Shown piece after piece: positions 1-34,898 of a DNA stretch of 37,300 bases. The notes beneath the pieces are model-generated. The model was not told the origin of the DNA. It was given only the letters and a program-made list of their open reading frames with translations, and did no database searches. How positions within the stretch are numbered: the first letter of the stretch is position 1; every line of letters starts with the position of its first letter. Source of the stretch: Psammoneis japonica (lineage: Eukaryota); assembly GCA_008632985.1 (NCBI GenBank), contig QPGO01000169.1:124001-161300 (forward strand), given 5' to 3'. Made by a program: the position numbers and the translations under genes.

Positions 1-2900
1 GTGCAACAACTCCACTTTCTGACAGCAGGCAGACCTTTGGGATGTTGGGGCATTGCACAATGCATCTTGGTCCATTTGGATTCTGGGTCCAATCCAATCA
101 TGCACAGTGCACAATTGATGACTTGTGGTTGAGTGAGGGTGATGGACCCATCTTTGTCATCATGTTCAAAACAAGTCCTGAGGCAATCTGCAATTTGCTG
201 TCATCAGCAAGGCCAAAATTTGGTGGATGTGAGTGACTTGGATGGTGACATGAGAGTGCCATTGTCCATGCCGAAGAAGAAAATTGTTCCGGTGCGGGTT
301 TTGCACAAACACATGTGTTGATCTTTGATTGCTCCCAGCCCCTGGCAAGAAGCCCTTTGCAAAGAAATTGGAGTCAGGCATGCAAGGCATCCTTGAGTCT
401 GTGCAAATTCTTGACAAGCTCATGTGCACTCTTGAGCTGGTCAATGAATTTAGATGGATCTGGAATGAAAAAGTTTGAAGGCACTCTTGCTGCTTTCATG
501 CTTGTGTCCATCTGGGCTGGGGCTTGAGGACAAGCAAATGCAAAATCAATTGATTCAAGGTGCCAGCCTTGAATCAGTGTGTGTTGACAATCATGAGATG
601 TGTGGTGCTCCACAAGGCAACAGGTGAGCAAGTGGACCAATGGCCCAATCCTTCAACAGATTTGTGCCCCCCAGCACAAAGTCATGCCTTGCATTTGATG
701 ATCTCACTGATGGGATTGCTTTTGCACTTTGTGGACCAGACCATGGGAGTGGGATGTGACCCTTTGTTTGGCACAGATTTGATTGGCACCACTTTCCAAT
801 GTTTCCTGTCAATGTGGTCTTGCAGCTCCTTCTTTGCAGTTTTGACAAATGCTTCTTGGTCAGACTGTTTCAATGCCTCTTCCAGGGTCTCAGTGTTGGG
901 GTCCCTGGATTTGGCTGCCAGAGCCATGGTGCAGTGAGAGAGCATCACAAGTGGGTGTCCTTCATTGTGTGGCATTCCAGGTCAGGTTGCAGCAAGGGCT
1001 GATCTGATGAACAGTCTTGCAGAGGGGAGCACTTTGTCATGAAGGCTGCAGCCACCTTGAATGTCCTCATGGCCACATTGGTGCACAGTTTGTTTGGTTT
1101 GACATGCCATCTGGATTGGGCTGTGTGTGGAGCTGGGGCACTGTTGTCAGCTTGCTGAGTTGGGTTTCTTGGAGTGATTGGTGTCTTCAATTCCCAAAGC
1201 TGGAGTTGGGATTTGTTCTGCATCCGACAACCCTCCTTGATCTGTGTTGATGTTGACATCTTCTGGCACATCTTCTCTGTTGTCAATGAACATTGGTGCA
1301 GGATCAGGTGGATCCTTGTTCTTGGAGGCTGCCTTGGGAGGAATGCTTCTTGGCAAGTTGACAGTGCCCTTTTGAGTTGCCTTGGCTGACTTCTCACTTT
1401 GCACCTTGGCCTTTGCCTGCCACACAGAATTGAATTTTGCATCTCAGCAACATGCTGTGCATGCAATGAAGTTGTGGTAAAATGTTTCCAGTGAGTGTGT
1501 TGAGGACAAGTGGCACATTCAAAGCATGGCTCTCAGCAAATGTGTGAGAAAGATTCCAGCATGCAAATGATTGGTCTGCTTGTTGCGGGACTTTTGCTCC
1601 TGCAAGGACAACTCTTGGATGCATGCTGGGGACCCAAAGGGGATGGAAGTGCTCAAGATTTGGCTCAACTGGTGAGCTGGAAAACAATGAGTTGGGGTCA
1701 ACTGTCAAGTGTTGGCACTCTCACAATCTTTTTGTTTTGGTGTGGCATTGCAAAGATGTTGGCACAGTGCTTGAGGGCTGCCCCAGCCACAACAATGGGT
1801 GCATTGCCTTTGGCGTTTGATGAACAGCATTCAGAGGAGCAGTTTGTGCTCCAGTGGCAATGTCCATCCTCAATGTGGTTTCTGGCTCTGCCATTCTGGT
1901 GATGAGCATTCATGCCACAAACAAAGCTCAGGGTTCAGCCGGCCACTTCAATTGCCACCTTGAATGCTTTGATGTCAAACAGACTGCTGTCAGTGACAGT
2001 GCAGGACTCGCACACATGGGCTCAAGTGATCATCCATTCAAACACCAGTTTGGCCCAAACGGTGGTGGCAGCATCCATGTTGGTCATAAGATGAGCACAA
2101 GCAAATTCAGAAAAATGGGTGACAAACACTGTGGCACCATTGCAATGTGTCACAGTGGGGGTGTCATGGTGAGTTGGTGCCAGCCCACAAGGAGCAGGGC
2201 TTGCAAGCTGGTTGATGCTGATCACTTCTCTGGGTTTGGTGGCTGGTCTGATGTTGTTTCAGCTCCACTTGCCTTTTGTTGCCTTGGGTTTGCATTGAGC
2301 TTTGCTGCAGGCACAACCAAGACATGCAGGTGGCATGGCTTTGGCAAGTTCCCTGGGACAAGACTGGCCTTGGCCATCAGTTGGAGTTTGGAAAAGCTCA
2401 ACTGGCTCAGAGTCTCACAGGTGGTGGCCAGCTTTTGCTTCTTGCATTGAGTGGTGATGACATCTAGATCAGATTGCTTGTTGGCATTGTCTGAAGAGCT
2501 GTTTTGGTTGAACATTGTGTTTTGAGGCTCATTGTTGATCGGGGCAAGGTCTGTGTCCTTGTGCAGCAATTTTGTGAGGTGCGTCATCCATTGGCTCCCC
2601 ACTTGTTCCACAGTCTTGGCAATGCTTGGCTCCCTTGGTTTCTCTTGCTCCAGTTGTGGTCTGCTCTGTTCATTGTCTGCAGCATCATGAACAGGAAGGT
2701 GGTTGCCAAGTGCTGCCATGCACAACTGTGGTGTGCAGCAGTTGCTCTGTTTGATGCAGCATGCAGTGCTCCAGATTGTTGCAAAGGCCAGTGTAGCTTT
2801 GACAGAGGAAAGTGAAATTTGTGGCAGTGATTGCATGGATGGTGGATGAAGTGATGGCAAAGGCAAAAAAAAACAGATCCACATTTTAAGTGCTGTCACT
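1..2900 (-). mobile_element. Decayed Ty1/Copia (CoDi-like) LTR retrotransposon pol fragment: integrase and reverse transcriptase, running off the window start
   Basis: Minus-strand fragments occur in Copia order. Integrase Zn-finger remnant LSQLSFSKLQLMAKA (~2300-2430). Integrase core ISINQLASP..GATVFVTHFSEFACAHLM..AKLVFE (2022-2225) and NAHHQNGRA (~1890-1913). RT remnants WKVVP..PMVWSTKCKSNPISEIIKCKA (682-800), GWHLESIDFAFACPQAP and KNLHRLKDA (374-570). Many frameshifts and stops. Confidence 0.9.
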
Positions 2901-3194
2901 CCTTTGCCAGCTGGGCCGGTGCCGGCTGACCCACACCCCCAACACACAGTCAAGTGCGGCAGGAGCTTGCATGGGATCAGCTGGAATGGGCATCACCAGA
3001 AGGTGACACCCCACCAAGACAACTGAGAAGGAATGGTTCACATGAGGGGATTTGTTGGTGTGTGTGCTTGTTGATGATGGCCACAGAAGGCACGCCACAA
3101 CTGCAATGGACAATTGCATTCAGACAGGTTTTTAAAACAGTCCACAAAAGGAGCCTTGAAGGCAAGATGAGCAGGTCATTGGAGAAAACATTCT

Positions 3195-3664
3195 TGACAC
3201 GTAGAAACAATGCTGAGTCTTGCACAGAAAAGCTGATGAGAGCAGCAAACTAAAGACCATCAAATGGCACCACAGGACAACTTGCGTTCTTGCTGAAAAG
3301 GGCCGCAAAAGAAGCAGCACATTCACCACAAAGAGCGAAGTGCTTGATTGCACGGTGGAGAAAAGAAGAGAGGTTGAAGACCAATTGGCAAGGATGAAAG
3401 TAGTCCAGAGAAGTGACACATAGACAGTCAGAGGTGACACGTAGAAACAACACCAGATCTTGTGCAGAAAGACCGATGGGAGCAGCAAATCAATGACAAT
3501 CAAATGACTCCGAAGGACAGCCAATGTTCTTGCTGAAAAGGGCCGCAACAGAAGCAGCACTTGCACCACAAAAAGTGAAGGACTTGATTGCACAGCAAGG
3601 AAAAGAAGCAGCATTGAGAACCAATTCGCAAGGACAAAAGTGGGCCAGGGAAGTGACATGTAGA
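3195..3664. repeat. Diverged tandem duplication with a 240-bp period (about 2 copies)
   Basis: TGACACGTAGAAACAA occurs at 3195 and 3435, and GTTCTTGCTGAAAAGGGCCGCAA at 3286 and 3526. The offset is exactly 240 bp at both anchors. Confidence 0.9.
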
Positions 3665-5400
3665 TCATCAGCAGCATCTGCAGATCCGCGTAGAATTTGC
3701 ACTGGAACCTGTGTGGAAAATTTTCTGAGACAACAGAATGTTGTGAGAAATGACAACCAGCATGTGAACCAAAAGGCCAGGACACTCGTCATTTTCCACT
3801 GATGAACTTTGCTCATCATGCTGTGATGAGGATGTGCCATTGGCAAACGTGGACAGAATGGGCTTGTTGGAGCCAAATCAATGCTGTCTGAGAATGGCAA
3901 CATCAGTGCAAAAACACGGGTGGAAACACACACAGGAGGTTGCCAGTGGGTGCTCACGCAGAAGAGTGATGGCAAAGGCAGCACACCATTTCAACAGAGT
4001 GGGGCCATCTTTGCACTCTTGGGCAGCATTGACAAACTGTCTGAACATGGCACTGTGGAGGGATCCTGCCATGGAGCTCCTGAGACAGCGACATGTTTGA
4101 GCTCTGCCTGTCTTGGCTGGTCACACACACAATGTGCACAGCAGCTTTGGCCTGTTCACCTTGGTGATTTGTTGTTGGCAGTTGCCACAGAGGTTGTGTC
4201 CACCAAAACAGCACATGTGCCCTGAGGGATGGAGGCACTTTGATGCTGAGTTTTCTTCAGCTCATGTGTCTTGGGAATTCAAAAGTGGCCACTTTGCTGC
4301 TCTAAATGCCAGCTCCATCAGTGCACAAAGACAAAAAAACAGAAAGCTGCATTGCCCATTTGAGAAGGGCAAAATCAAATGGCTCATAAAACTTGAGGGG
4401 GGGACAAGAAAACTGGAGGAGGCTGCGCTGCTGCAGCAGAGCTGTGGCCTTGAGGTCAGCAACTGCACTGGCCAAGGCACTCAGACCTGCTGCCTGCAGT
4501 TGAGCATTGTGAGACACTTCTTTGCATTGGGCAATTGCTCTCAGATTGGTGGTTTGGAGTGAGATGGTGACTCTGACACAGCGGCAGAGCTTTCATTGGG
4601 GCAACATCCCAGTGCTTTTGGGGCAACAGCACACAAATGTTGTGGCAAAGGTGTGTGCACATTGTGCAGAGGTTTTGTCTCAATGGTGGTGGACAGTGTC
4701 AACACATGTGACTGTGACAATGCAGGTGTGCAGAAGTTGCAACAGTGGTGCAAAAACATCACAGAAATGTGTCTCGTTGCAGCGGAGGTGCAAAGTGATG
4801 TCGCAACTGCGGTGCAAAAATGTCTCTGCACAGCACTTTGTCAAAGGGTCCCAAAGACACAAGAGCACTGAGGAGACAAGTGCTGCAACTCTCATTTGGG
4901 CTTGAAACTTGAAAGAATGGCAAAGGAAGTGAAGTGCACCAGTTTGCAGATTGCAGAAAAAGTGAATGAGAGAAAAGAAGGGAAGGCAAGGTGGTCAACA
5001 GGAACCTTGCAATCTGACTTGCTTTAAGATGAACTGGAGAGTCCATCCCTTCATCATTGGTTGCTTGATTTCCTTTTGCACACATGCAAGAGACTTGTTT
5101 TTGCCAAGTGTTGCATGAAGAACGTGCAGTGTTTTGTCGAGTGTAGATTTTTTTGCAGACTGCTTCACAGAGTTTCCACCAGTGTTCTCCCATGTTGTTT
5201 GCACTGTCCCAAGGCTGTCCAGCAGCTTTCCACTCTGCATGCTAGAGAGGGGGGCGAACTTGGCTGGTGCCAGTTGCTAGCTGCTGTTGCTTCGCGCCCC
5301 AAAAGGCAAAAACGAAAGTTTTCGCATGCAGCGAGCAGCGAGCGCGGGCTCTCTTGTTCAATCATCGGTCAAGTGCTCAGTGCTTGAGCACACATCGCGC
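3665..5400. other. Unidentified degenerate sequence depleted of TpA and CpG (probable TE or pseudogene debris)
   Basis: TA is almost absent and CA/TG is in large excess. I recognised no motif. Confidence 0.5.
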
Positions 5401-5551
5401 GGAAGCTACCAGTACGAAGATTCTTCCTACGAAATCAGAAAGCACCATTTTATTATGAACTGAGTTAAAGCCCAATACAAGGCCAGCTGTTGTCGCCGAA
5501 GTTTTGTTTTGTTTTGATATAGTTTAAAGTTTATTTCATCGCAGACTTCAT

Positions 5552-6631
5552 CTATTCAGGTGGTACACTTGCTTCCAAAATTGAAAACTGCTCCGACGAA
5601 AGATAGTGGTGAGTAATGTACTCATCCGGTTTATCTGTAGCATGAAAATTGAACAACGGTTCTGCATACATATCGGCTCCGTGTATTCTCGCACATTCTT
5701 TGAATACGTGGTCATCCCCACTCTTTCTATTCCACTTTTGAGGCCAAAAGAGGAGAGGTTGCTCATAGTCGGGCCGTGCATCGACAAAGTTGCAATCGGT
5801 TCGATTGACGTAGGTTCGTGACAACTCAAGGGTGCACTTTTGAAAATCCCTTGTCGACGTCATTGCCGATGAACAGGTGGACGTTAAAAGCTCTTGACAA
5901 CTTTCAAACGAACAGCCAAGAAATGAATCATTGTTGCATTCTGTATTGTTGTTGGCCTTTACTTTTTGGTACAAGAAACTTGAATAACACGAAAAGAGAG
6001 TACGCGCATTGTATTTCTCAACGAGCCCTCGACTAAAGACAAGGACACTCCCCCAAAAAGGTGGCACACAGCTGTACCAGAGCTTGTCGGGGTTATATTT
6101 GGTCTTGTTTGAACTTAGCAAGAGTTGCATTCTTGGAACGTGGAACCAAGCGTCGTCGTCCACCAAAAAGTAATAGGACGCATTCGGAAACTCCTCTCGC
6201 ATTGTGAGAAGCAGATACAAAAATCGCATTTGTGTGCACCGATCTCGAGCATTAAAAAGCCTTGCATCATTTCCCAGCAGTGGTCCCATACTAGAGTTGT
6301 GTGAGCAATAATACTTTCCTGGCACGCCACGTATCCCCAACGAGGAATTCTCCTGGTCCCCCATGACAATGTTGTTGCGAAACCGCGAAAGAAACCCAGA
6401 CATGGTACGAATTCGACGTACAGCATTCGGTCCACCTGTATTTATTCCAACAACCCAAGAATATGTAAAGGATGCTGCGTATTTAGATGAATTTGCCGGG
6501 GCTTTTGTCTCTTTTGTAAGAGATGTGTCACTTGTCGCTTCGCGTCGATAGACATATGGGAACAATAGTAGTTGAAGAAACACACATTGAATCAGTAAAG
6601 CACAGATGGAATGGCGAATGCGCCGCCACAT
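5552..6631 (-). CDS. Type II membrane glycosyltransferase, GT31/Fringe-like (paralog A), 359 aa
   Basis: Intact ORF with an N-terminal TM segment (ICALLIQCVFLQLLLF), a YYFLVDDDAWF DxD motif, a GSVLVFSRGLV motif and a late GDDH motif. Normal TA and CG content. Confidence 0.8.
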   Translation of the reverse strand: MWRRIRHSICALLIQCVFLQLLLFPYVYRREATSDTSLTKETKAPANSSKYAASFTYSWVVGINTGGPNAVRRIRTMSGFLSRFRNNIVMGDQENSSLGIRGVPGKYYCSHNSSMGPLLGNDARLFNARDRCTQMRFLYLLLTMREEFPNASYYFLVDDDAWFHVPRMQLLLSSNKTKYNPDKLWYSCVPPFWGSVLVFSRGLVEKYNARTLFSCYSSFLYQKVKANNNTECNNDSFLGCSFESCQELLTSTCSSAMTSTRDFQKCTLELSRTYVNRTDCNFVDARPDYEQPLLFWPQKWNRKSGDDHVFKECARIHGADMYAEPLFNFHATDKPDEYITHHYLSSEQFSILEASVPPE

Positions 6632-7049
6632 TGTTGTGATTGCAAGTGATTTGTTTTTGCGATGGCTGTCTGCATTTCATATTCATTTCACTACTGTACC
6701 CAGTGACGATTCGATTTTGTGAGCGCTGCCGTTACATTCACGCAATGGTCTTTTATCTACCGGTACATAAGATTTCATTGAGACGTGAATCGCTCTCTTC
6801 CGTTGAAGGCTCAACGGTCGTGAGAATGCAAATGTGGGAAACAATTTCTGAATATTTTATTCTATCGCCAACTATCCCATTTATTGATAAATGCTGTATG
6901 TAAGATTATATTTTTTCCCACTTCCACCCTCCACATTATTCCACATCGCATCGCACTACACTACACTAACAACATCATGTTGTCGGCTCCAGTTTGCTTC
7001 CTTTGCTCTTACTGCACAGGGTGTTGGCGATCAGGTTGCATCCATGGGA

Positions 7050-8950
7050 ACGACACTCGTGACTCCAAGAAGAGCAATGCTTGCAAACTCTTGTTTTCAC
7101 TTTGCAACCGCTCAGGCTTTGTCGGATGAGAGGGGGCGACTTGACATGCGCGACTGGTGGCTTCAACAAGCAACAAGAATGTGACAGTCAAAATTGATGA
7201 GTCATTCTTAATTGACATCAAACACATGTGCCATTCCCAGTCCCGGTGAGGAACTGCTGCTGGATCTGCCAAACCTTGCACCCTGTTGTGCAAAGCATTG
7301 CTTCCATCGGCTGACAAAAAAAGGCTCAACCCAAAATGCATCCCTTTCATTCTCACCACCCAAGAAGGTGTCACTGACCTGAGTCTATTCTGTTTTGGTC
7401 TTGTTGCACTGAAATGTCTCAATTTAGCCCACATTGTTCAGTCCATTGACATCACATGATGGGCCCCCAACAACTGGGACGTTTGAGTTCTCTCGGCTCA
7501 AATCCACGAGTCACCAAACTGACTGCATTCTTGTTGAACTGAGAGAGTTTGACCATGTTGTGATCACGTGAACATTGTGCAGTCATGAGCAAACACCAGC
7601 ACCTTCCCCAGTCCACCCGCTGCAAAAATCAAGCCACTGTCATCAAGAGCAAGAGAGATGTGTTCCAATCTGAAAAAATGCGCCTGGTCCATTGATTGGA
7701 TCACCCACCAGTTCCCACAGGGATGACACTGAATTGCATTCATGCACTGAAACCTGACTAGTGCTTCCACCTCTGTCACTCAAATGTGCTGCAATGTCAA
7801 CAACAAACCCCAAGCCACTCAAGGAAGCTGATTGACCAAATGGAAAGTCTGAAGGTTCGCCAACCGGTTTCTGTCCAAGCTGCTCCCAAGATGATGTGCT
7901 GGGATTGCATTGAAATGATTGTGCTGACCCAGTCCAGTTGTTGTGGCTTGTGTCATCCCTTGAAGATCCAACAGCAAGAATGCCCCAGTGGCCAACAGTG
8001 ACAGAGAAGTTCCAAACCCATCTTCAGCTGCCTGTCCTTCAATGTCACCTCCAAGTGGATCCCAAAGATCCGCATTGGAACCACATTTGTGTGCATTGAT
8101 GTGACCCAAAACCTGCCTGCTGCCATCATTAAAAATGGTGCTCCAACTGCTGACATGGCACCACTCTCATTCAAAGACACAGAGGCACCAAATCTGTCTC
8201 CAATGCCTTCGCCAAACAACTCTTGTCCCAAGGGAGTCTGCAATTCCGTTTGGTTGAATCAAAAGACCAAGACATGTCTGGGATTGATGGAGCCTTGCAA
8301 TGCTCCCACTGCCACAATGCTTCCTTCAGCAACAAGGCAACAGACTTGCTGAGCTCATCACCTGCTGCTGCTCTTCCAACAAGCGCTTGTCCAACGGGCT
8401 GCCACATGGACAGTTTGGGAGTGCAACAACAGGAGTTGGAGCTTGCAAAGGAGGAAGAGTTGGCCCAGGTGTTGGCTGTCTTGTTGGAAGTGGTGTGGGA
8501 CTTGTTGAGGGTGTTTCTGTGGGCAAGCTTGTCAGAAGAGGCACAGGACGGGCTGCACTGTTGTTCCCACAATTGTTGGATGTCACCACAGCAGCAATTG
8601 CCACCACAAGACAAACAGTCAAAATTGCAATGCCCAAAGAAACATTTTTGCCAGTGCCTTCTTGTCCCATCACCCCACTTGTTGGAAGTGTTGCCGCTGC
8701 CATTCTTGGATGTTTGAGCAACCTCAGCATGGGCAAGAGGTGCAGACTGGTCTCCCTCTTTGAGATGACTGATTTGTTCTTTAGCACAGCCCACCTCATG
8801 CCGCATGTTGACAAGGTCCGTGGCAGAGGAGTGGGCAAGCTCAGCCTCCAAAAGGATTGTCCCATCATGCCTGTCAGGTGGCAGTGTGAGATCTGAGTTG
8901 ATGCTCTCCAAGGCAGTCATGGCACTGATGTGTTGTTGTCATCTTGTTCA
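7050..8950 (-). pseudogene. Pseudogene of a membrane-anchored FG-GAP-like (beta-propeller) repeat protein with a Pro/Thr-rich stalk
   Basis: Fragments in several frames: TM segment LGIAILTVCLVVAIAAVV; stalk PTETPSTSPTPLPTRQPTPGPT; repeats WQPVGQALVGRAAAGDELSKSVAL, LGQELFGEGIGDRFGASVSLNESGAMSAVGAP, WDPLGGDIEGQAAEDGFGTSLSL and FGLSLFLSADGS. Frameshifted and depleted of TpA and CpG. Boundaries approximate. Confidence 0.8.
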
Positions 8951-11900
8951 CATTGAACTCCCCTGCTGCCTGGGCATGTGGCAAAAGCACCAGCAGAGTT
9001 GGAGACATTGATGGAGTGCATGTGTTCAGACTCTTCTTCATCTGCTTGTTCTTCATTGTGATGAATGTGATGATGTTCTTTCATGCCAGGAGAACCAGGC
9101 CTGGGCATTGGGGCTGGTTCATCTGATGCTTCTTCCCCTTCTTCTTGCTGTTTTTTTTGAATCCTTGATGCTTGCCAAACAGTTTGTCCCTTTTCATCAT
9201 TGATGTCTTCTTGCTGGCATGTTTCATGGTTGTCATGGTTGAAAAACTGAAAGAGAGGTCAGGTTGTGTCACAATGCACAAGCAGCAAGCTGTGTTCAGT
9301 TGCTGCATCTAACTCAGTCATGGTTTGTTGCCAAGACTCAAGCAAGGCGCGAAAAAATGCTGCAACAAAAAATCTTTTGAAATTGTCACAATGGCCACAA
9401 TTGGTGTGTGGAGTTGTTGTGCACAATGTGGTGTCACACTGTGCCAGCAAGGGGTGAATAGTGCCAGCAATTTGTGGGATTTCAATTGAAATGCTGTCCC
9501 ATCTTGGGTGTTTTGTCAACAAACAATTGAGCAACACCTGGAGTGGGGTTGTGTGGGGTGGCATTTCATGCCTTTCCTGAGAAGCCACACAATTTGCACA
9601 CAGACAGACAGCCTGCCTGAACAACATTTCTCTGGCACCAGCCGGGGTGGCTTCTGCACAGCAGCAGCTCTCATCCAGCCCTGAAAGACTGTTTTGTTGA
9701 CATGATTGCTCAAATTTAACTTTTTAAACAAGAAAATTGCGGTGCTGACAATGCCTTTTTTGCTGAGATTTTGCAGTCATCAAGAGGCCTGGCCCTGCAG
9801 TGCTCACACTTTGCTGATGACTGGCAGAGAGAAGCCACCATGCACCAGGTGCTTGCGACAATCGCTCACATGAGAAGATGGTTCACACACAATGCATGAT
9901 GTGCCAACACAAAATTTAAACTTGTTCTGTTGAGCACAGGCTGATGGGACCCAGCTGTGTGAGGTGCCATCTGCAAGCAAGATGTTGGCAGTTGGCAGAG
10001 CACCAGAGCTCAGGGTTGCCCAGCCAATGACAAGTCAGGGTGTCTTGGGATGGAGATGAGCTGCAGCTCTGGGGAGGAACTCACAGTGAAGAACCACAAC
10101 ATTTTGCATTTTTGTGTCTCAGTGAAAAACTTCATGCTCACTTCCATGTCACTTTGGATTTGTTCCCAACAACTTTTTGACAATTTTTGCTGCATTCTCC
10201 CATGTCTGCTACAGAGTGCAACTGTGGGCATGGACTTTCTAAAATTTTGAGCATGAAAAGGTGTGGCAGTGCCACAAAAGGGGTTCTTTCTTGTTTTGGT
10301 GTCAAAGACAGGTGAGTCCATTGTCCACACCAGCACACAAGCTGCAGAGTTTGCACGCAGAATCATGCAGGACACATGTCCAAAATTCCCACCCAGAGCT
10401 GGGGTGTGTTGTTAAAGTCCACCATGAAAAACATTTTTTGCTGTGTGCTGCTGTGCACAAACCAATGTCACAGGTCACAGAGGGGCACACTTCACACAAA
10501 GCAGCTGTGGGACAAGAATGCAGCATGCATGAACAGCCAGTGAGACTTTCGCTCCTGCATCTGCATGACACACACACACAAGCAGCTTCACAATTTTCAA
10601 TTGCAATGAAAGAGGCTGTTGCACTCTGCATTTTCGTCACATCACATTTTCCTCATGTGAGACAGCCCCTCCAGTTCTTGCACAACTTGCCCTTGAAATT
10701 TTCTAAAAAAATGTTTTACCACTGCTGTCTCCTGTGTGTCACCCAAAACATGGCCAACTGCAAACTCCCCATGTCTCTCTCACACTTGTGAGTTGTTCTG
10801 GAAGTGGGCTTGTTGTTCAAGAGAAAGAGAAAATTGCCATTGTGTGGCAGCATTGCAGCAGCTGTTGAGCTGGAAAATTGAAAGTCAAACTAGAAGCTGA
10901 TCTGATTTGGTGCACAACCAGTCTGATTTGGCTGTTGTTTCTTGCTTGAATTGTGCCTTGTGGTGATGGCATTTGCTCTTTCATGTTTGTTCAGAGGCAA
11001 AGAATCTTGGTGTGCTCGAGACAAAAGTTGCTGACATTTTTTTGTGGCCACAGCACAAACTGCATTTTGCAGAAGGAAAAGGCAAGCAGTGGCATTGCAG
11101 CAGCTTGTGCTTTTGCTCCCCTTCTGGTGCACAGAATTGCAGCTGAAAATGGGCTTCATGAAAAAGACAAAAGTTTTAGAAAAACAAGAGAGCCTGGCTC
11201 AAGCAATGTGCTCAAATTGTGAGCTGCCAGTTGGCTCCATCTGACACCAGGTGTTCTCCAACTAAGAGAGCACAGCCAATGGCCCCACTCTGTGATTCCA
11301 AATCAAGGCTTTGAACCCAAGTGCCAGGCATGCCATCAGACATTCTGTGAGCAATGAAAGCAGGGTGTGTGTGATTTTCCCTTTTGATTTGTGTGCAAAA
11401 GAACAGCAAGACACACAAGCACTGCACTTTCACAGAAGCTGAGCAACAGCAAGAACATTCATTGCTGTGGTTGTGCTGTGCATGTTGGCCATGTGCAAAG
11501 CCCCTCCTGAAAAACATGTGTGATTTGCAAGAAAGCACGGCTGCACAGCTGCAAATGCTCAAAACAACTTAGATGCACTGACTTGCAGCTGCTGCAAGAG
11601 TTGCAAAATTTAACACAAAAGGAGCTTGACACACAAGACAGAATGTTGTGGGGAAAACAACAATGGAGCAACCCCAGCAGGCGGTTGTTCAATGGCAAGA
11701 ATCAGGGTTGTTGAAGCATTGCACAAAGGCTCTGCACAATGTGACACTCTACATCATCTGCTTGTTGGGGCAGAACAAACTTGAACAAACTGTGTGTTGT
11801 GGTGTTTGTTGTCAACCCACAGAAAAACAAAACAAAACAACTCCCCGCATGGTTGTTCAATGGCAGCAAGAATCAGGGCTGTTGCAGCACTGCCTGAAGG

Positions 11901-12350
11901 CTCTCTTCACAACATGACACCCTGTGTCTGTTTGATGTCAAGCAGGAAGAACTCAAACAGACTGTGTGCCATGTGATCATTTGTGCATTTTCATGCATTT
12001 CACTTCTTGGCACCACACTTGGTTTAGAATAAAAACAAAGGGGAGCACAGATGGTGGCAGCAGCTGTTCAGATTAAGACCCAGAGAAGTTCCAGAAGTTC
12101 AAACCCAAATTGCACTACACTGCATCCTTTGTGTGTCCCCTCATGGGCCACAACAACATTTGCCCTGCTTTTGCAAAGATGATGTAGAGTGCAGAGGTGT
12201 CTGGTTGGCTTGCACTGAGCGACTTTAGTCTGACTGATTGCAGCCCCCAAATGAAACAAAAACCATCAGAGTTCTTCGTGCAGTAAATGAATTGCAAAAA
12301 AGACAAATTGCAGTGCATCCCATTCTATCAAGTTCCATCAACGTGATGAT
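8950..12350. other. Unidentified degenerate block depleted of TpA and CpG
   Basis: Same compositional signature as the recognisable TE remnants. No confident protein motif. Confidence 0.5.
11683..11970. repeat. Diverged direct repeat with ~168-bp offset (2 copies)
   Basis: GGTTGTTCAATGGCA(GCA)AGAATCAGGG.TGTTG.AGCA.TGC occurs at 11683 and 11851, with similarity continuing to ACTGTGTG. Confidence 0.75.
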
Positions 12351-12442
12351 GTATGTTTTGGTCGAGCACCCTCTGGCGTTGTCACCGAACCTCTTGTTTG
12401 CTGTGCTTAAATACAAATAATTATTTCATTAACTGGCTGTTT

Positions 12443-13528
12443 CTATTGAGGTGGCACACTGGCTTCCAACATTGAAAACTGCTCCGGCGAAAGATAGTGA
12501 TGAGTAATGTACTCATCTGGTTTATCTACAGTTTGAAAATTGAAATTAAACAGTGGTTCAGCATACATGTCAGCACCATGTATTCTCGCACATTCGTTGA
12601 ATACATGGTCATCACCACACTGTCTATTCCACTTTTGAGGCCAAAACAGAAGCGGTTGCTCATAGTCGGGCCGTGCGTCGACAAAGTTGCAATCTGTTCG
12701 ATTAACGTATCTTCGTGACATATCCTGGGTGCACTTTTGAAAATCCCTTGTCGACGTCATCGCCGAAGAACAGGTGGAAGTTAAAAGCTCTTGGCAGCTT
12801 TCGAATGAGCATTCAATGAACGGATCATTGTTGCATTCTGCGTTGTTGTTCGCCTTCAATCTTTGGTACAAGAAACTTGAATAACAAGAAAAGAGAGTAC
12901 GAGCATTATATTTCTCAACGAGCCCTCGACTAAACACAAGGACACCCCCCCAAGAAGGCGGCGTGCAACTGTACCAGAGCTTGTCGGGATTGTATTTGGT
13001 TTCGTTTGAACTTAGCAAGAGTTGCATTCTTGGAGCATGAAACCAAGCATCGTCGTCCACCAAAAAGTAGTATGACGCTTTCGGAAACTCCTCTCGCATT
13101 GTGAGAAGCAGATACAAAAATCTCATTTGTGTGCACCGATCTCGGGCAGTAAAGAGCTTTTCGTCATTTCCCAACAGTGGGCCCATACTAGAGTTGTGCG
13201 AACAATAATACTTTCCCGGCACGCCACGTATCCCCAACGAGGAATTCTCCTGGTCCCCCATGACAATGTTGTTGCGAAACCGCGAAAGAAACCCAGACAT
13301 GGTCCGAATTCGACGTACGGCGTTCGGCCCACCTGTATTAATTCCAACAACCCAAGAGTCTGTAAAGGATGAAGTGTAATTTGATGGTTTGGCCTGTGCT
13401 TTTGTTGAAACGGTTTCACTTGTCGCTTGCAGTCGATCAGGTCGATAGACGTACGGAAACAGCAGAAATTGGATAACGGATAATTGAATCAGTACAACAC
13501 AGATGGAATGGCCCATGTGCCGCGCCAT
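12443..13528 (-). CDS. Type II membrane glycosyltransferase, GT31/Fringe-like (paralog B), 361 aa
   Basis: Highly similar to 5552-6631, including an identical stretch from SWVVGINTGG to PLLGND and YYFLVDDDAWF. The start is placed at ATG 13528 (MARHMGHSIC), which aligns with MWRRIRHSIC of paralog A. Confidence 0.8.
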   Translation of the reverse strand: MARHMGHSICVVLIQLSVIQFLLFPYVYRPDRLQATSETVSTKAQAKPSNYTSSFTDSWVVGINTGGPNAVRRIRTMSGFLSRFRNNIVMGDQENSSLGIRGVPGKYYCSHNSSMGPLLGNDEKLFTARDRCTQMRFLYLLLTMREEFPKASYYFLVDDDAWFHAPRMQLLLSSNETKYNPDKLWYSCTPPSWGGVLVFSRGLVEKYNARTLFSCYSSFLYQRLKANNNAECNNDPFIECSFESCQELLTSTCSSAMTSTRDFQKCTQDMSRRYVNRTDCNFVDARPDYEQPLLFWPQKWNRQCGDDHVFNECARIHGADMYAEPLFNFNFQTVDKPDEYITHHYLSPEQFSMLEASVPPQ

Positions 13529-13869
13529 GGTTATTACGCAGTGCCTGTAAAGCAATAGTCGTCGACAGCACTGCAAAGATGCTGGTATTCGCCTTTGCTA
13601 ACTCATTGGTGCTGTAGCCATTCGATTACAGTAGAGTCTATGTATGTACGGTATTTTCGACTTTGTGAGCTTGCTTTTTGACTGTCGGATTGTCCAACGC
13701 ATGCCGTAACGCATGCGACCGTCCGTTGCGTTGCCGTTGCTTGAGACATCTCGCCGCGCGCTTGACCGCCGTCCGTTGAGAGGCCCCAGGACCCGGAGTC
13801 TCCAACGAGATCCACTGGCGAACGCAATGTTTTTCGCCACCAAACAATGATTGGGGTTTGCCGCAACAT

Positions 13870-15130
13870 TTTTTAGACTTGTTTCATGCAGCGTTCAATG
13901 AAAAAGAGAGAGTTGGAGGGCACCTTGCATCAAGTGAAAAAAGCTTTTGTTTGGAAAAGCTTTGCAGGAGACCTCCTCTGAGCCTCCCTCACATTTGTCT
14001 CGACTCTCATGCTGGTTTTCTTGAAAACAGCTGAGTTTTCTCTCATTGTGGTGTGCCCAGCACCATCGTGCAGCACCTTTGTGTGCATGGCTGCTGAGAC
14101 TGCACCTGGCAATGGCTGGAACCTGCACACCGCAATGGAGCAAAAATGATGATTTTAAATTTGGCACAGGTGGCTGCAATGACAAAGATCTCTGCAACGC
14201 ACTTGGGCAGTTGGAGCACAAGGAGGAGCTTTTCTCACATTTGATGTGGCAATGTCACAGCTTGCAGCATCTTGAATGACACGTTTGCACTATGAGACCC
14301 TGACTTTGGGGCTGTTGACATGGGTTGTTTGTGGTGTTTGAGAAGTGGTCGGCCTCACATGGGCAGAAATTTTTTGTCTTCATTTTTTCATGCTGCCCCC
14401 AATCTGCCATTTTCTTTCCAGCTCAGCACTTGGGCTGGAGAAGCAGGCAGCCTCATGACATGTGCTCGGGGCACACTTTGAACAATCAATGTGCTGCTGC
14501 TCTTTTTTTAGAAAGCAATGCAGCGGGCCCAGGGCTTTTGTCACATGCAGCCACCATGCAAAGTTGCTTTGGTGCACCATTTGCAAAGCTTTTTTTTGCT
14601 CTCTGAAGACAAGGCATTGTTGAAAAAGCTTTGACAAATGCTGCCAAAGTTCAAGACTCTAAAAATGAGATGTGCGCTCACAAATCTTGTCTGGTGTGCT
14701 GCTTTGTTGGCAATTTGAGGAAAATGTTTGCACAATCCACCAGCTGCAACAATGCACCTTTTGCCATTGAAAGCACCAGATGCATCTTTCCACTGCTGGA
14801 AAGGTTTCACACATCAGTTCAGCAGGAACACCATGGCCATCACTTGCCATGGTGGCAGCCACAACAAAAACCAGAGTGCGCGCAATTCCTTGAATGAACA
14901 TTGTGCTGTTGTCCAGCACCATTGTGGCAACAATGTTGACAGCAAGTGCTTTGCACTGCAGAGGAGCATTAGAATTGCACATGAATTGTCTGACAGCTCT
15001 TGTTGAAGCTTTCAAAAGGTTGTGTCCACGAACGCAGAACACTCACATTTTCCATCTGAAGCTGCACCAGCAATCTGGCAAAAACTGTCATGCTGGGAAC
15101 AATTGCATTGTCAGCGGGAAACCACCAAAA
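13870..15130. other. Degenerate block depleted of TpA and CpG, probably a TE remnant
   Basis: Sharp compositional switch on both sides. A CWAH-like string near 14050-14070 (-) is too weak to assign a family. Confidence 0.45.
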
Positions 15131-15309
15131 TCATTCGGATATCTGCACAATGTTATAAGTTAGGAGTATGTAGGATGGAGTTCTTGTCAAGATCCATCAA
15201 AATTCAGCAGTCGCGTCAAACGTCAACAACAGCGCATGTACGCATGTACGTGTGTGTTGAAACAACTTTAAAGTTGGAGACCAGAAAGGTAGAATCGATG
15301 AAGTGACGT

Positions 15310-16278
15310 CTATGTTGGCTCATGTATTGCTGGCACCCATGTAGAGGTGTTTGTTGCGTTCTGACCAAGCGACATGAACGGTGCCATAAACATCCAGTCG
15401 GAAAACATACCATAACCCTTATAGGGCGGTTTCACCAGCAGACACGGGGACGGGAATTCCTCCAAACAACCCTTTAACATTAGAGGCTGATCTTTGCCTA
15501 TAAACTTTGACTTGCGTTTTCTCAGCAACTTGTAAAACAAATCATGCCATCGCAAAAGTCCTTGAATGTACCCTCCGATGAAGCCGCCTCCGATAGACCT
15601 GTATACCTGAAGCATTACAATCTGTTCTTCTTGAAGTGCTGGAGGAATGTGCTGCAACATTTTCTGACCATTGTACGTGCCGTCTCTAAAGTAGCCAATA
15701 TCAACCCACGCAAAAAACTCTGACTGGAAATGGTTCATGTCGATTGCTCGTTTGACAAACTCAATCTTTGACAGCCATACCCAGTACACAAGATATGAAC
15801 GGTGAACCTCCTTTTCAGGGTCCATTGCATACTGCCTTTTCCAGAACCTCGAGCTGAACATCTTGGCTGTATTGGTTTCATTCAATTCCAAAATCACAAC
15901 CTTGGTCTTGTTTAAAGCATGGGCACGGCCCTGCAAAATACGCGGAGCAAGGTCGGCCGAGGTGAAAACTACCATGGGATCCTCGAGCAAAAGAAAGTGT
16001 TCAATCCACTGCCAGTACAATTTGTTACTGTGCTTTGAGTCAAATTCATAATAGGCCGTCACAACGGTGTTGTTGGCACCTTTGGAGTGGATCCCGGTCC
16101 GCTCATTCGACAACTCGAGAGACACATGACGCACTTCTTCAACTTCTGAGCCGATAAACACGTAAGAAGGCAAGGCGAGGCAAAGAACGGTAACCAGTAG
16201 ATACCTGACTATGGTGAAGCACTTTTTTTTAGACAACCCAATGTCCTCAAGCGAGATCCGCTTTGTCGTTTCGCTCAT
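15310..16278 (-). CDS. HtrL/YibB-like putative glycosyltransferase, type II membrane protein, 322 aa
   Basis: N-terminal TM segment. Motifs TVVTAYY, PMVVFT, Y..W.SK..FVKRAI..N.F.SEFFAWVDIG, GGGFIGG and GKDQ are typical of the HtrL_YibB family. Confidence 0.75.
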   Translation of the reverse strand: MSETTKRISLEDIGLSKKKCFTIVRYLLVTVLCLALPSYVFIGSEVEEVRHVSLELSNERTGIHSKGANNTVVTAYYEFDSKHSNKLYWQWIEHFLLLEDPMVVFTSADLAPRILQGRAHALNKTKVVILELNETNTAKMFSSRFWKRQYAMDPEKEVHRSYLVYWVWLSKIEFVKRAIDMNHFQSEFFAWVDIGYFRDGTYNGQKMLQHIPPALQEEQIVMLQVYRSIGGGFIGGYIQGLLRWHDLFYKLLRKRKSKFIGKDQPLMLKGCLEEFPSPCLLVKPPYKGYGMFSDWMFMAPFMSLGQNATNTSTWVPAIHEPT

Positions 16279-16788
16279 GACGAAACGTCACGTGAAAGCA
16301 CAAAGTCTTGCAGCGCACTAATGTAAGAGTGCTGGCACTGACTCTCTGAACACCAGCAATCTCCAACTCTTGTGGAAGAGCTATTGCAATAAAGTTTGCA
16401 TGCTTCGAACGTCACGTTGGAAGAAACTGGCTTTACACTGCTAAACGAACAACGCACGACGAACGCAACTAAACTACAATTGCGTCGATCCGACGCCCAA
16501 CGATAGTCTACATGCCGATTCCGATCACCGATCAAGTGCGCTTGAATGGGTCCAAGCTGGAAAGCAATGAAGCCCGCAAGTGATAGTGAACGGCACGGAA
16601 TTTCAATTTTCGCGGGAAATATGGATGATATACATGAGTTTATATCATATTTATTTTAATGTTGTAAATAATGGAAGATACGTCATTTTGGCGGGAAATT
16701 TGCGTCAGCGGCGCAAGCGTCAAAACTGAAGACACCATAACGAAACATCGGGCCGACAAACAGCGAAACCGAGCACAACGACGCCCAA

Positions 16789-17934
16789 ATGCCAATGACA
16801 TACGACCGACAGAGATCAAAGACGACGAGATCCAACATGTTGAAGAGAAAATGGAAGATATTTGCTTTCCTAGTGGTTGCTCTCTGCTGCATTGCTTTGT
16901 ACCCAGTCCTCTCTCTGGGTGTATTCTCGTCGCTTTCCATCGAAAACAAAGAACAAGCCCCAATAGTGAAAGAAGACCATGAGAACACCGAGTACGACAA
17001 CAAAAACATCAGCTCTTCCTTACCTGCCGAAACACTAAAAAGATGGCTCAACGGCACAATATCTCCTCCAAATACACCCGTGGCTTTTATTCATATTGGG
17101 AAAACGGGTGGGTCGACAGTGTCGTCTCAACTAGCAAATGGTTGTCACTCTTGGGTAAAAAAACCGTGCCAATTAGTTACAAACGAGACTCTGATAAGTC
17201 GCTTGTCTACGTATATGCACGTACCTGACTTTTACAATGGAATGATATCCAAACATCGCTATCGGGTTTACGTAATTTCAGTACGCGATCCCTTTTCCAA
17301 GTTTCTCTCCTCGTTCACATACGAGCATCCCGACAATGTCAAAGTTGCGGGGGGACCCTACGCGCTAAAACGGATTCGGCAGAATCAGCCCTTTTTTGAA
17401 CCCTGCTTCCCTTCGGTTGAATCGTTTGCTGAAGCGCTTGGGGATGGCGATCCTCTCGAGTATGACTACCCGTTTCCTGTCACCACAGTCAACAATACCA
17501 ACTGCACAAGCTTGGCACGAGCCGCCATGAATAATCGAGTCCGGGGTGGCCTTGAACACATGTATGCCAATACCAAGTTTGTTATTTCGCTGCTACCAGA
17601 AAACAGTCTGAGCAACTCTACGATACTGCTTTTGAGACAGGAAAATCTGTGGGGAGATTGGCAGGCAGCAAATCAATGGCTCGGTCAACCAGAGGACGAT
17701 GTTGCACCCTTTCCAAACGTACGGATACGAGATTACAGTACCGTTAAGCTACCCGTTTCCAAAAAGGTAAGTGCCCTTGGACAACAACGTTTATGTCGAG
17801 CCCTGGAACCAGAGTATCTAGTCTACCTAGATTTGGTTCGACGCGCATCGAATCTTGCAGCCAGTGACAAAGAACAAGCCCTGAAGCTTGCGCAAGAGCA
17901 CTGTCCATTACTAAATTTAACTCTCAGCGCATAA
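16789..17934 (+). CDS. Golgi-type (type II membrane) sulfotransferase, 381 aa; alternative start at ATG 16837
   Basis: TM segment IFAFLVVALCCIALY, 5'-PAPS-binding loop FIHIGKTGGSTV and 3'-PB motif SVRDPFSKFLSSF. Confidence 0.85.
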   Translation: MPMTYDRQRSKTTRSNMLKRKWKIFAFLVVALCCIALYPVLSLGVFSSLSIENKEQAPIVKEDHENTEYDNKNISSSLPAETLKRWLNGTISPPNTPVAFIHIGKTGGSTVSSQLANGCHSWVKKPCQLVTNETLISRLSTYMHVPDFYNGMISKHRYRVYVISVRDPFSKFLSSFTYEHPDNVKVAGGPYALKRIRQNQPFFEPCFPSVESFAEALGDGDPLEYDYPFPVTTVNNTNCTSLARAAMNNRVRGGLEHMYANTKFVISLLPENSLSNSTILLLRQENLWGDWQAANQWLGQPEDDVAPFPNVRIRDYSTVKLPVSKKVSALGQQRLCRALEPEYLVYLDLVRRASNLAASDKEQALKLAQEHCPLLNLTLSA

Positions 17935-18149
17935 TTCACACCTCTAGCTAGTAGAGTTAAAAACCACAGGAGGGTGATTTGTTCTCTGTTGTTGGGTGTG
18001 CTGTGTGATGCTGGCATGACACAAAACAGACGAGCAGCAAAACGCAAAACCCTGAAATGTAAACCACCAGTTGCAACTGGTCTGGGAGGTGAGAACACCT
18101 GGGAAATGCACCGCAGGTGCCCAACCTTGGTGTCGGGACTTTAACAAAC

Positions 18150-18570
18150 CAAAAACAACTGAAACACAAGTTCCATCAATGCTGGCTTGTTGTGATCTTG
18201 GTCAAAATGTCCACCAAAATTGTTTCTCCACCTTCTTTCCCAACTCTCCTCACAATGCCTGCAGCAACACCTTCTCTAACAGTGTGACCACTGGCCATGG
18301 TGTGCCACCAACATTCTTCACAACTCTGATGCTGGCACAAATTTGCTCAAAAGATCTTCAATTGGAGCACCAAGTGCTTGAATTCATGCTGAAATGCAAT
18401 GACCAGCAGCTCCTTGGCAATTTGTGAAGTGGCCAACTTGTTGCTCTCCTCACCAAGCCAGCTGATCAGAGCATGATGCTGTGCAAAAGTCATCATTCCA
18501 CTGTGCAATCTGTGCATGGTTCCATTTCCATCATGATTTACATTGTCAGCACAACCAACCAACACAGTGT
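18150..18570 (-). mobile_element. Decayed Ty1/Copia RNase H fragment within the TpA-depleted block at ~17960-18990
   Basis: CADNVNHDGNGTMHRLHSGMMTFAQHHALISW resembles FVDANHAGN.VTRRSHTG..IF.Q.API.W. It is followed by IAKELLV and then HTVREGVAAGIVRRVGKEGGETILVDILTK, which resembles the Copia RNase H C-terminus YH.VRE.VAAG...V.K.....NLAD.LTK. Confidence 0.8.
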
Positions 18571-19864
18571 GGGCTGATGTGCTGCCGTTTTTCTGAGGAG
18601 CTGCAAGGTGTTTGGACAGTGGTGCCCCCCCTCACACACACACACGCAAAAAAGCACAAAACGTGCGCCACTCTGTCTCCCCACCACCAAAACCCACTGG
18701 ACATGTGGAGAATGACAGCAACATGTGAGTGCATGTGCCAGAGGCCACTCAAGTCTGTGCTTCTTGCAGGAAAGTTCTGTGTCGCATGACCTCACACCAC
18801 CAGCAGCCGAGTCTTCTTCTCTTTCAGTTGTGCCGCGGCCCCACAGAACAGGAGCCAGCACTTTCTTCTGTTGCTTCACATTGCCAAAGCATGTCCTGGC
18901 TCTGACAAAGCAAGCAAATTTCACATGTCTCACCTTGTCCCAGATAAATGACCAAGTGGCATTGCAAACAATCAACCTTCTCTCTTGTCGCAATTTCTGA
19001 TGGAGAATTACAACCGAAGTTGAGCGTCATGAAGAGCAGGCGGCCAGACCGTAGGAATTTGCCTTTTCCGTCCGTCCCTCCGTCATAGCATCGCATCATG
19101 CACCATGACGAAGAAACCAAAAACGCCCGCGTTCAATGCCATTGTAGTACAATGGCTTTGTTACTGACATGGAGAGAGCCATCATGAGCAAGAAGTCTAT
19201 CCTGCATAACCCGTGGGTGCACTGAATTGTTTGATCCGATTCATGTAGTGCGGGGAAATTTTGCGGCACTGATGTGTGTCGGTGTCGGCCGAATATTAGC
19301 GGCGCAACGCGTCCTGTCAAACGGCACTTTTAGCACCTTTGTCGCATCTGACTTAATATTTTACACTGCGATGAAGGAGATATAGCGAGTGATGATCTAC
19401 AGATGTAATATTTCATTATGGTCGAGACTTTCTGTTGAGTTGTTCAATTGCTGATGCATGTTATACTGTGCGACTTGGTCACGCGTGATTCATGCCAAGC
19501 ACATTCGTACCGGTAAATCAACAAATTGCAATGCCAATCAAGAGTTAGAGCATTGAAACTTTCTTCATAAAAAGAGAGAACGGTCGATTTGTGGAGATTG
19601 AATTCAAATCTCTCGATTCATCATCTCTTTATGGACTTATCGTGTGACGCCGAACGGTCAAACAGCCACGTTGGACCACACTCTGTGTTTCTTTTCTCCT
19701 GAAACAGAGTACCAGGTTCCGTTTGATTATTGTCACAGGGCCTTGACTGTTGATGCTTCCTTATTGTTGCCTATTATGAAGAGATTAAAATTCAAGAAGA
19801 AACGCAACGGTGTTCACAAATCTCAAACAGCACACAACTTCGACAGAACGTGTTGGTGTCGACC

Positions 19865-33092: not shown

Positions 33093-33281
33093 CTAGGGTT
33101 TGTTGTTGGCAATCGTCAACACTGCCATGGTGTTGTTTTCTCTTCAACGAAAAAAGCAACAACAAATCGACAGGGAACGAATGAAGACAAGAGACGAGAG
33201 GCGTGTGGAGGAGCGCGGAGTGGGAGGCGGGCTGATGTCAGTTTGCCTTGCACAGACACAAGAGGGAACCATGACAGATGG

Positions 33282-33410
33282 TGCCAACCGAGGGTTGGCA
33301 ATTTTCCCTTGAAGATTTTGACAGCGTCGCAGATTGCACGCAAAATGTGCTGATTCGAGTGAGTCAAAAAAAGTCGTTTCAACGGAACATTGCCAACCAG
33401 AGGTTGGCAA
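33282..33410. repeat. Two copies of an interrupted palindrome, TGCCAACC-NNN-GGTTGGCA
   Basis: TGCCAACCGAGGGTTGGCA at 33282-33300 and TTGCCAACCAGAGGTTGGCAA at 33390-33410, 190-320 bp upstream of the YR ORF start. Confidence 0.85.
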
Positions 33411-34750: not shown

Positions 34751-34898
34751 GTGGTGTTTGGATTCATTGAAAGTGCAAGATCATTCAATTGGGAATGTCT
34801 CAAATGAGAAAAATGTCCAGGGTCATTGGCAGTGATGGTGGCCTGCATCATGAACCCGATGTTGATCTGTGCGCAGGTCATTGTGCGGGTGCTGTCCT

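Follow-up and report, generated by a model that had tools for sequence, protein, structure and literature searches.

The closest precedent comes from the rhizarian alga Bigelowiella natans, in which 230 of the 231 de novo mutations recorded in two integrated viral regions were A>G/T>C changes and all GC-biased de novo mutations fell at TpA (Mettrop et al., bioRxiv 10.64898/2026.01.13.699255). The same preprint describes TpA-poor clusters rich in CpA and TpG throughout the genome and proposes an ADAT2-like deaminase. It is the only close precedent for TpA-specific hypermutation that we found; the preprint's main text, as far as it was available, holds no treatment of flanking context, trinucleotides, CpG or diatoms, and no report of TpA depletion or hypermutation in diatoms was found in the literature searched. 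Here we describe a 37.3-kb stretch of DNA from the diatom Psammoneis japonica (assembly GCA_008632985.1, contig QPGO01000169.1, positions 124,001 to 161,300; hereafter the window), in which six blocks have lost most of their TpA (TA). These blocks are probably diatom DNA brought close to saturation by a mutator that acts at the DNA level within restricted domains, turns TpA into TpG or CpA and prefers 5'-TAY (Y, pyrimidine; R, purine; N, any base).

The two cases are alike in that A:T>G:C change at TpA gives TpG and CpA, which here is read indirectly from the balance between TA loss and CA+TG gain and from the codons of a Crypton transposon. They may also be alike in that discrete foreign or transposon-like domains are involved, one of them a single-copy viral insert in the parts of the Bigelowiella account consulted; here one block holds the Crypton and the other five are obscure. 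They differ in host, a rhizarian there and a stramenopile diatom here, and in degree, since Rho is given as 0.45 in the nucleocytoplasmic large DNA virus (NCLDV) region of Bigelowiella, whereas observed/expected ratios (O/E) of TA here are near saturation, at 0.01-0.1. Unlike in Bigelowiella, CpG loss is coupled to TpA loss in most blocks of the window, and a 3'-neighbour rule, an effect of the +2 position and the direction of change could be derived. A kind of process reported in one alga thus appears in a diatom, run to saturation. What is new relative to the main text of the preprint is the motif (TAT ~ TAC >> TAG > TAA, with the +2 effect), its action on both strands and its independence from CpG loss; such a motif provides a testable fingerprint for candidate deaminases.

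Blocks depleted of TpA and CpG

Depletion was scored as the O/E of TA, CG and CA/TG in 1-kb windows, and edges were located in 200-bp bins. The 1-kb windows fell into two classes, that is, ordinary DNA with TA O/E of 0.45-0.76 and CG of about 0.7-1.2, and depleted DNA with TA O/E of 0.01-0.13, CA and TG of 1.5-2.3 and CG mostly of 0.05-0.3. Six blocks were drawn (1-5200, 7020-12020, 13720-15130, 17970-19000, 24150-25990 and 29200-36100), totalling 21.4 kb of the 37.3-kb window; their edges are abrupt in the 200-bp bins and the intervening genes are undepleted. In 7100-12050, base composition would give about 67-74 TAs per kb, against the 2-6 per kb that are present.

Per kb, the blocks hold 39 fewer TA and 37 fewer CG than the rest of the window. 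From the same block versus outside counts, the combined loss of 75.6 per kb is close to the gain in CA+TG of 73.5 per kb, which indicates that transitions turned both self-complementary pyrimidine-purine steps into CA/TG. The steps ApA and ApT lie close to normal in the blocks, TpA being the lost step among those that contain A. The depleted features, with a strand only where one applies, are the following:

1-2860: TA/CG-depleted block, continuing past the window start; TA O/E 0.01-0.07, CG 0.05-0.11; 5 surviving TAs (2 YTAR, 3 RTAR); read depth 63-65, that is, single copy
2870-3930: satellite-like repeat in high copy, lying within the first depleted region; 9 TAs, including 5 GTAG
3940-5200: TA/CG-depleted block; 4 TAs (2 YTAR, 2 RTAR)
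7020-12020: TA/CG-depleted block; TA O/E 0.03-0.08, CG 0.06-0.31, CA/TG 1.5-2.1; 22 TAs (17 YTAR, 4 YTAY, 1 RTAR, 0 RTAY)
13720-15130: TA/CG-depleted block; 6 TAs (5 YTAR, 1 YTAY)
17970-19000: TA/CG-depleted block; 5 TAs (2 YTAR, 2 RTAR, 1 YTAY)
24150-25990: TA/CG-depleted block; 6 TAs, all six YTAR
29200-33500, minus strand: TA-depleted block with CpG largely retained, containing the CryptonS-like remnant; TA O/E 0.08-0.18, CG 0.65-0.77; 28 TAs (15 YTAR, 9 RTAR, 2 YTAY, 2 RTAY)
33501-36100: TA/CG-depleted block adjoining the Crypton; TA O/E 0.02-0.03, CG 0.26-0.5; 4 TAs, all four YTAR

Flanking context of the surviving TpA steps

An earlier note on this DNA had counted by eye about 19 of some 24 residual TAs around the 7020-12020 block as YTAR and had seen no RTAY. 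When every TA in 7100-12050 was listed, 18 of the 24 proved to be YTAR (seven TTAA, five TTAG, four CTAA and two CTAG) and none RTAY (0/24), very nearly as claimed; the other six were YTAY (CTAT, TTAC and two CTAC) or RTAR (ATAG and ATAA). All 11 positions quoted as examples are YTAR, the quoted number being that of the base before the T. Four nulls were compared, and YTAR exceeds the share expected under each of them: 0.25 from flank base composition (p = 4e-7), 0.33 from first-order neighbour frequencies (p = 3e-5), 0.159 from the NTAN spectrum of undepleted DNA (p = 2e-10) and 0.224 from the bases that surround CA/TG within the depleted blocks (p = 6e-8).

Over all six blocks, YTAR made up 56 of the 89 survivors, against 104 of 654 TAs (16%) in the undepleted DNA of the window, and exceeded all four nulls with p from 7e-9 to 2e-23 (the last against the undepleted spectrum). 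The skew was also present outside the 7020-12020 block (39/67 YTAR, p = 4e-15 against 0.159), and the statement that more than half of the survivors in the Crypton are YTAR agrees with the 15 of 28 found in 29200-33500. By class, the counts were:

YTAR: 56 of 89 survivors, 104 of 654 undepleted TAs, per-kb survival 0.38
RTAR: 23 of 89 survivors, 154 of 654 undepleted TAs, per-kb survival 0.11
YTAY: 8 of 89 survivors, 175 of 654 undepleted TAs, per-kb survival 0.03
RTAY: 2 of 89 survivors, 221 of 654 undepleted TAs, per-kb survival 0.006

Depletion is far from uniform across NTAN contexts (four-class comparison of blocks with undepleted DNA, chi-square 117, p = 4e-25), and its order is the one that had been predicted, with RTAY the most depleted (survival 0.006), the mixed contexts next (0.03-0.11) and YTAR last (0.38). 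A second baseline gave much the same expectation, 17.5% of 3135 TAs being YTAR in 22 undepleted metagenomic Crypton loci. The five GTAG of the satellite at 2870-3930 may all go back to a single site; with the satellite excluded, YTAR/RTAR/YTAY/RTAY stood at 53/17/8/2 of 80. The 16 contexts, counted in 20.3 kb of depleted DNA (satellite excluded) and 15.1 kb of undepleted DNA, were as follows (depleted/undepleted):

YTAR: TTAA 21/32, TTAG 14/20, CTAA 11/19, CTAG 7/33
RTAR: ATAA 4/43, ATAG 3/34, GTAA 4/39, GTAG 6/38
YTAY: TTAC 4/31, CTAC 2/45, CTAT 2/37, TTAT 0/62
RTAY: GTAC 2/58, ATAC 0/54, ATAT 0/54, GTAT 0/55

These counts were fitted by a Poisson model in which a TA consists of two half-sites, one per strand, which are hit independently, the survival factor of a half-site depending on the base that follows its A. 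The factors obtained were 0.73 for A, 0.51 for G, 0.13 for C and 0.05 for T, which corresponds to relative hit rates TAT:TAC:TAG:TAA of 9.4:6.4:2.1:1, and with them the model reproduces all 16 NTAN contexts (chi-square 16.4, 12 degrees of freedom). TAG half-sites survive 4-10 times better than TAC or TAT. A further base matters as well, because A at +2 is enriched among YTAR survivors (65 of 106 half-sites, against 76 of 210, p = 2.6e-5), so that the best-protected sites are YTARA-like. The undepleted DNA of the window mirrors the block survivors in reverse, YTAR making up the smallest share of its TAs (16%) and RTAY the largest (34%).

The loss of CpG follows another pattern. Surviving CGs in the same blocks were flat across contexts (p = 0.19), and in 29200-33500 about 85% of TA but only about 22% of CG has been lost. 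The two losses are therefore separable, that of TA being much faster per site, and TA and CG decay run on different clocks or marks. Deamination of 5-methylcytosine (5mC) in methylated transposons resembles the flank-independent CG>TG/CA component of the blocks; it differs in leaving TpA untouched, whereas in 29200-33500 TpA loss is far ahead of CpG loss. A single enzyme of dual specificity was set aside in view of the flank independence of CG loss and its lag far behind TA loss in 29200-33500. The CG O/E of 0.65-0.77 in this block contrasts with 0.26-0.5 in the adjoining 33501-36100, at equal TA depletion.

Direction of change and the CryptonS-like remnant

Only the mixed contexts (YTAY and its complement RTAR), in which one strand reads TAY, discriminate the changed base. 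If the A next to the pyrimidine changes, YTGY/RCAR are expected, and if the T changes, YCAY/RTGR. Mixed-context TA loss over all blocks amounts to 19.4 per kb. Once half of the mixed-context CpG flux has been subtracted, the gain comes to 19.0 per kb for YTGY+RCAR (13.8-24.3 by chunk bootstrap) and to -0.6 per kb for YCAY+RTGR (-4.6 to 3.8); dividing this flux evenly is warranted, since CpG survivors show no preferred context. In 29200-33500, a block with little CpG loss, the uncorrected gains were 17.4 (YTGY+RCAR) versus 5.7 (YCAY+RTGR), the minor flux being about what residual activity at TAR half-sites predicts. The difference between the two sums, calculated by hand, was 18-43 per kb in eight of eight blocks, against 1.6-17 in six undepleted segments.

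Forward simulation, in which undepleted DNA of the window was mutated in silico at the fitted rates, gave a chi-square of 38 for TAY>TGY, 96 for a random product and 217 for TAY>CAY. Under TAY>TGY the classes were predicted at 35.7/33.7/23.7/23.5 and observed at 36.1/35.5/22.8/22.0. Mass balance and simulation thus agree on the direction that had been proposed, TAY to TGY and, on the other strand, RTA to RCA.

Codons of the one identified element provide a direct look at the change. Elements of the CryptonS type have termini with direct repeats of 5-6 bp, often TATGG; here, any terminus with a TA in it would have been mutated as well. The remnant in the window consists of the following parts:

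29831-33092, minus strand: CryptonS-like coding remnant, with a putative tyrosine recombinase open reading frame (ORF) at 31980-33092
30645-31730, 30199-30609 and 29831-30184, minus strand: CryptonS-like frame-shifted pieces, from homologue alignment

The ORF at 31980-33092 has 1935 homologues at E of at most 1e-3, and the alignment of homologues of 1107-1168 aa extends, with frame shifts, as far as 29831. One long homologue, P0122 (1107 aa), was aligned over residues 28-340, 455-800, 842-979 and 985-1106. The family consensus contains the boxes ...LMCRS.NT..., FAH.KTD, GVHSIRKGAAT and KDRYL, which on our own reading are tyrosine-recombinase-like and would correspond to the R-H-R-Y motifs. The window copy is decayed after residue ~320 and its HSIRKG box is not in frame. 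No Pfam model matched the recombinase, the remnant being recognised by homology search only; a sub-threshold match to Peptidase_C48 (Ulp1) was seen in homologue P0123 (E = 0.006). CryptonS has been described from oomycetes and a diatom, with a conserved C-terminal region and sometimes a C48 domain (PMC3212892), and the domain plan predicted here matches that description as far as it was available. With homologues, recombinase-like boxes and domain plan pointing the same way, the Crypton label of the earlier note appears sound, and at least one block is, judging from these similarities, a dead CryptonS-like transposon.

The recombinase ORF is poor in Tyr (0.5%) and contains 4.3% Cys and 5.1% His. 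Conserved Tyr columns now hold His (Y57>H, CAC after G; Y286>H, CAC after A) or Cys (Y153>C and Y213>C, both TGC), conserved Ile columns read I251>V and I265>V (in both, ATA>GTG after T) and I285>T, and a conserved Thr column reads T53>A. CpG codons have decayed as well (R>C, T>M, D>N). Such changes at conserved columns indicate that the element was mutated in place, in the way inferred. I251V and I265V are the codons that discriminate in favour of TAY>TGY; the Tyr columns are all preceded by a purine and give no discrimination. Fragments f3 and f4, which had been misplaced by mafft --addfragments, were left out of this comparison. A search for closer Crypton relatives for polarisation gave eight proteins, none above 57% identity, and the comparison of the metagenomic locus L012 with P0122 (60% identity) showed one codon case each way and did not decide the direction.

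Intact relatives of the Crypton have TA O/E of 0.5-0.8. Among 26 metagenomic Crypton loci, one element (L012:120-2201, overlapping L003:1000-2052) is TA/CG-depleted over most of its length, and its reading frame is nearly open despite the depletion. The 5' 1 kb of the same element in L003 is undepleted, a difference that a chimeric assembly, or a domain edge falling within the element, might explain. One homologue of the recombinase ORF, P0126 (395 aa), has 0.3% Tyr and raised Cys and His, the only such protein among the 150 homologues listed; by its composition it is probably another TpA-mutated Crypton copy.

Targeting, mechanism and rival explanations

Contigs of three sequencing runs (X1-X3) were aligned to positions 1-20000 of the window at 80% likeness; X1 is probably the source of the assembly. 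Within this region, X1 depth over the blocks was 59-90 (65-90 in the 7020-12020 block), equal to that over genes. The satellite at 2870-3930 reached a depth of 2400-3600, about 40-60 times single copy, and has 230-bp internal units that are 77% alike. Self-comparison of the window revealed no repeated family in the blocks besides the tandem units at 3195-3664 and two short repeats. Two paralogous genes on the minus strand (5551-6635 and 12442-13532), 85.6% identical over 1.1 kb, flank the 7020-12020 block and are neither TA- nor CG-depleted. Single-copy blocks and untouched duplicate genes together indicate that present-day repetition is not what marks the blocks.

This sets the blocks apart from fungal repeat-induced point mutation (RIP). 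RIP is likewise a defence-like process that strikes whole domains with transitions, ruining transposons and leaving its mark on dinucleotides. It requires duplicated sequence, whereas here depth is single-copy within 1-20000 (satellite excepted) and the gene pair of 85.6% identity is untouched. It also changes C>T mainly at CpA and so creates TpA, whereas in these blocks TpA has been destroyed until hardly any is left, and CpA has doubled.

Variation among copies gives some hints of activity. Eight differences separate the window from the long X1 contigs in ~19 kb, all eight in depleted blocks; they lie at 150, 1866, 4357-4358, 8134, 8803, 9459 and 13812, and six are at sites of the CG/TA<->CA/TG type. 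At 9459 a residual ATAG in the window is CA in the X1 contig (RTA>RCA), and at 4357-4358 CA stands against TG. These may hint at haplotype differences from recent or continuing activity. Among the satellite copies 317 of 385 variant places are transitions, with several adjacent pairs that read TG in the window and CA in other copies; the 40 of these 385 places that were viewed gave a mixed picture, uninformative for A>G polarity.

The mutator that we consider probable would act on either strand at a rate set by the base 3' of the adenine, hitting TAT and TAC about 6-9 times and TAG about 2 times faster than TAA, and more slowly still where A stands at +2. On the TAY strand A would become G (TAY>TGY, read on the opposite strand as RTA>RCA), and a TA would last longest when neither strand reads TAY, that is, as YTAR and best as YTARA-like. 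A second, slower process would remove CpG without flank preference, most simply by deamination of 5mC in methylated DNA. The data themselves demonstrate the dependence on context, half-sites that behave independently on the two strands, the direction of change and the separability from CpG loss. The chemistry would be enzymatic deamination of adenine to inosine, read as G, and the enzyme would require T on the 5' side and favour a pyrimidine on the 3' side; we infer an adenine deaminase behind the A-to-G changes. Its targeting might depend on chromatin or on a mark of foreign DNA rather than on present-day repetition.

The earlier note had placed the target at the A of TAY, and for this speak the order of contexts, the two-strand fit and the direction of change; the sparing of YTAR proved to be relative, with about 62% of it lost, and the +2 base matters too. 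Several points weigh against our reading. YTAR is only relatively spared, about 60-70% of it being gone as well, and no deaminase gene, inosine or de novo event was observed; in particular, no deaminase gene of the cytidine deaminase (CDA) fold was found in the window by Pfam search of 15 long ORFs and 150 block ORFs. Both rates and direction assume ancestors with a tetranucleotide composition like that seen in undepleted DNA or intact Cryptons, and among the contigs of runs X1-X3 there were no block copies of at least 80% likeness (blocks within 1-20000, 2870-3930 satellite excepted). If, in the worst case, all mixed CpG flux went into YTGY/RCAR, the net gain falls to 2.4 per kb (-4.3 to 9.6) and the direction becomes indistinct in the CpG-poor blocks; the flat CpG survivors argue against that allocation. 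Direction-discriminating codons are few, and one of them, I102>M (ATA between two As, now ATG), opposes TAY>TGY. In the depleted part of L012 only 1 of 8 survivors is YTAR, while 6 of 8 are YTAY and 5 of 8 lie in in-frame Tyr codons. This exception may be due either to tyrosines kept by selection on a recently active element or to a lineage-specific preference.

We know of no established case of a natural enzyme whose defensive role is to deaminate adenine in cellular DNA. The natural site of TadA is U-A-C-G, with a 3' pyrimidine. TadA and ADAT2 resemble the present activity in that the target A is preceded by U or T, TpA being here the only A-containing step lost; they differ in that the substrate here is chromosomal DNA domains and that TAT is hit at least as well as TAC. 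Editors derived from ecTadA are described as weak after a 5' A or G (PMC11405849, in the part consulted). We regard the resemblance to TadA as an analogy only. It is possible, though we consider it rather doubtful, that diatoms possess a natural DNA A-to-G editor at 5'-TAY homologous to the Bigelowiella activity, as an ancient defence of the stramenopile, alveolate and rhizarian (SAR) lineage against invaders. Such an adenine-deaminating enzyme would be guided to its targets by chromatin or by foreign DNA, and TA (together with CG, where methylation contributes) would collapse into CA/TG in the invading sequence.

The same TpA mutator could alter the thymine of 5'-RTA instead, through a modified or alkylated T that mispairs with G. 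TAY>TGY and RTA>RCA are one event in double-stranded DNA, so that sequence evidence is blind to the base that was touched, and 5-hydroxymethyluracil, 5-formyluracil and O4-alkylthymine do mispair with G. We know of no TpA-specific thymine-modifying system in diatoms, though no search aimed at one was made. Deaminating adenine is a chemically simpler route to A:T>G:C and also the mechanism proposed for Bigelowiella in the preprint, as far as available; we therefore rate a thymine target as unlikely.

More improbable still is that the skew arose from later regeneration of TAs out of CA/TG, or from selection, rather than from the preference of a mutator. With ~220 CA+TG per kb, ordinary C>T transitions could yield a few TAs per kb, and the survivors of L012, mostly in-frame Tyr codons, show that selection is able to shape survivors in some elements. 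Nevertheless, 22.4% of CA/TG sites lie in a Y..R frame, and regeneration predicts about 22% YTAR against the 63% seen (p = 3e-16), while TTAA, the commonest survivor (21-23), is not obtainable from CWG-type deamination. Coding selection would retain TAY (Tyr), the opposite of what survives, and the blocks have no recognisable genes besides the Crypton remnant.

We give very little probability to a route through RNA, in which an ADAR-like enzyme would edit double-stranded transcripts that were then copied back into DNA. ADARs do favour a 5' U/T, and their A>G changes cluster in repeats, which they hyper-edit; such editing is discussed in the Bigelowiella preprint (bioRxiv 10.64898/2026.01.13.699255, in the part seen). 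Their 3' preference is the opposite, the hot spot of ADAR2 being 5'-UAG (PMC10661471, as far as consulted), whereas TAG is among the spared contexts here. The ADAR substrate is double-stranded RNA, the sole identified element is a DNA transposon without reverse transcriptase, and neither it nor non-transcribed flanks would have their genomic sequence altered in this way; the two strands and the non-coding parts are affected to the same extent. Least credible of all is that the blocks never had normal TA and CG, being of foreign composition, or are an assembly or sequencing artefact: the obscure origin of five of six blocks would allow it, but the Crypton with Cys/His at conserved Tyr columns and Met/Cys/Asn at decayed CpG codons was mutated in place, intact relatives have TA O/E of 0.5-0.8, TA+CG loss equals CA+TG gain, and X1 contigs reproduce the sequence with 8 differences in ~19 kb, though X1 is possibly the assembly source.

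If a TpA mutator has indeed shaped such domains, it bears on their annotation. Only TGA stops are left in the depleted blocks (e.g., 8154-8938 and 30633-31739), TAA and TAG being gone, and long overlapping ORFs therefore occur in several frames and on both strands; such stop-poor domains would mislead gene callers with long false ORFs. The loss of Tyr codons likewise lets transposon proteins escape profile searches, and two copies would decay convergently because the product is largely fixed by context. Pfam searches covered 15 long ORFs of the window and the 150 longest of 168 stop-to-stop block ORFs of at least 70 aa; no credible family was found in these 150, and five of the six blocks were without recognisable origin.

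Among the neighbouring genes, eIF2B-epsilon is a 772-aa intron-free ORF at 26223-28541 on the minus strand (identified by Pfam), whose best relatives are diatom proteins at 50-58% identity, the named ones belonging to Mayamaea, Seminavis, Amphora and Chaetoceros. This places the window on a nuclear chromosome of a diatom. An HtrL_YibB domain, of a family described as bacterial, was found in the ORF at 15310-16278 on the minus strand (Pfam E = 2e-15).

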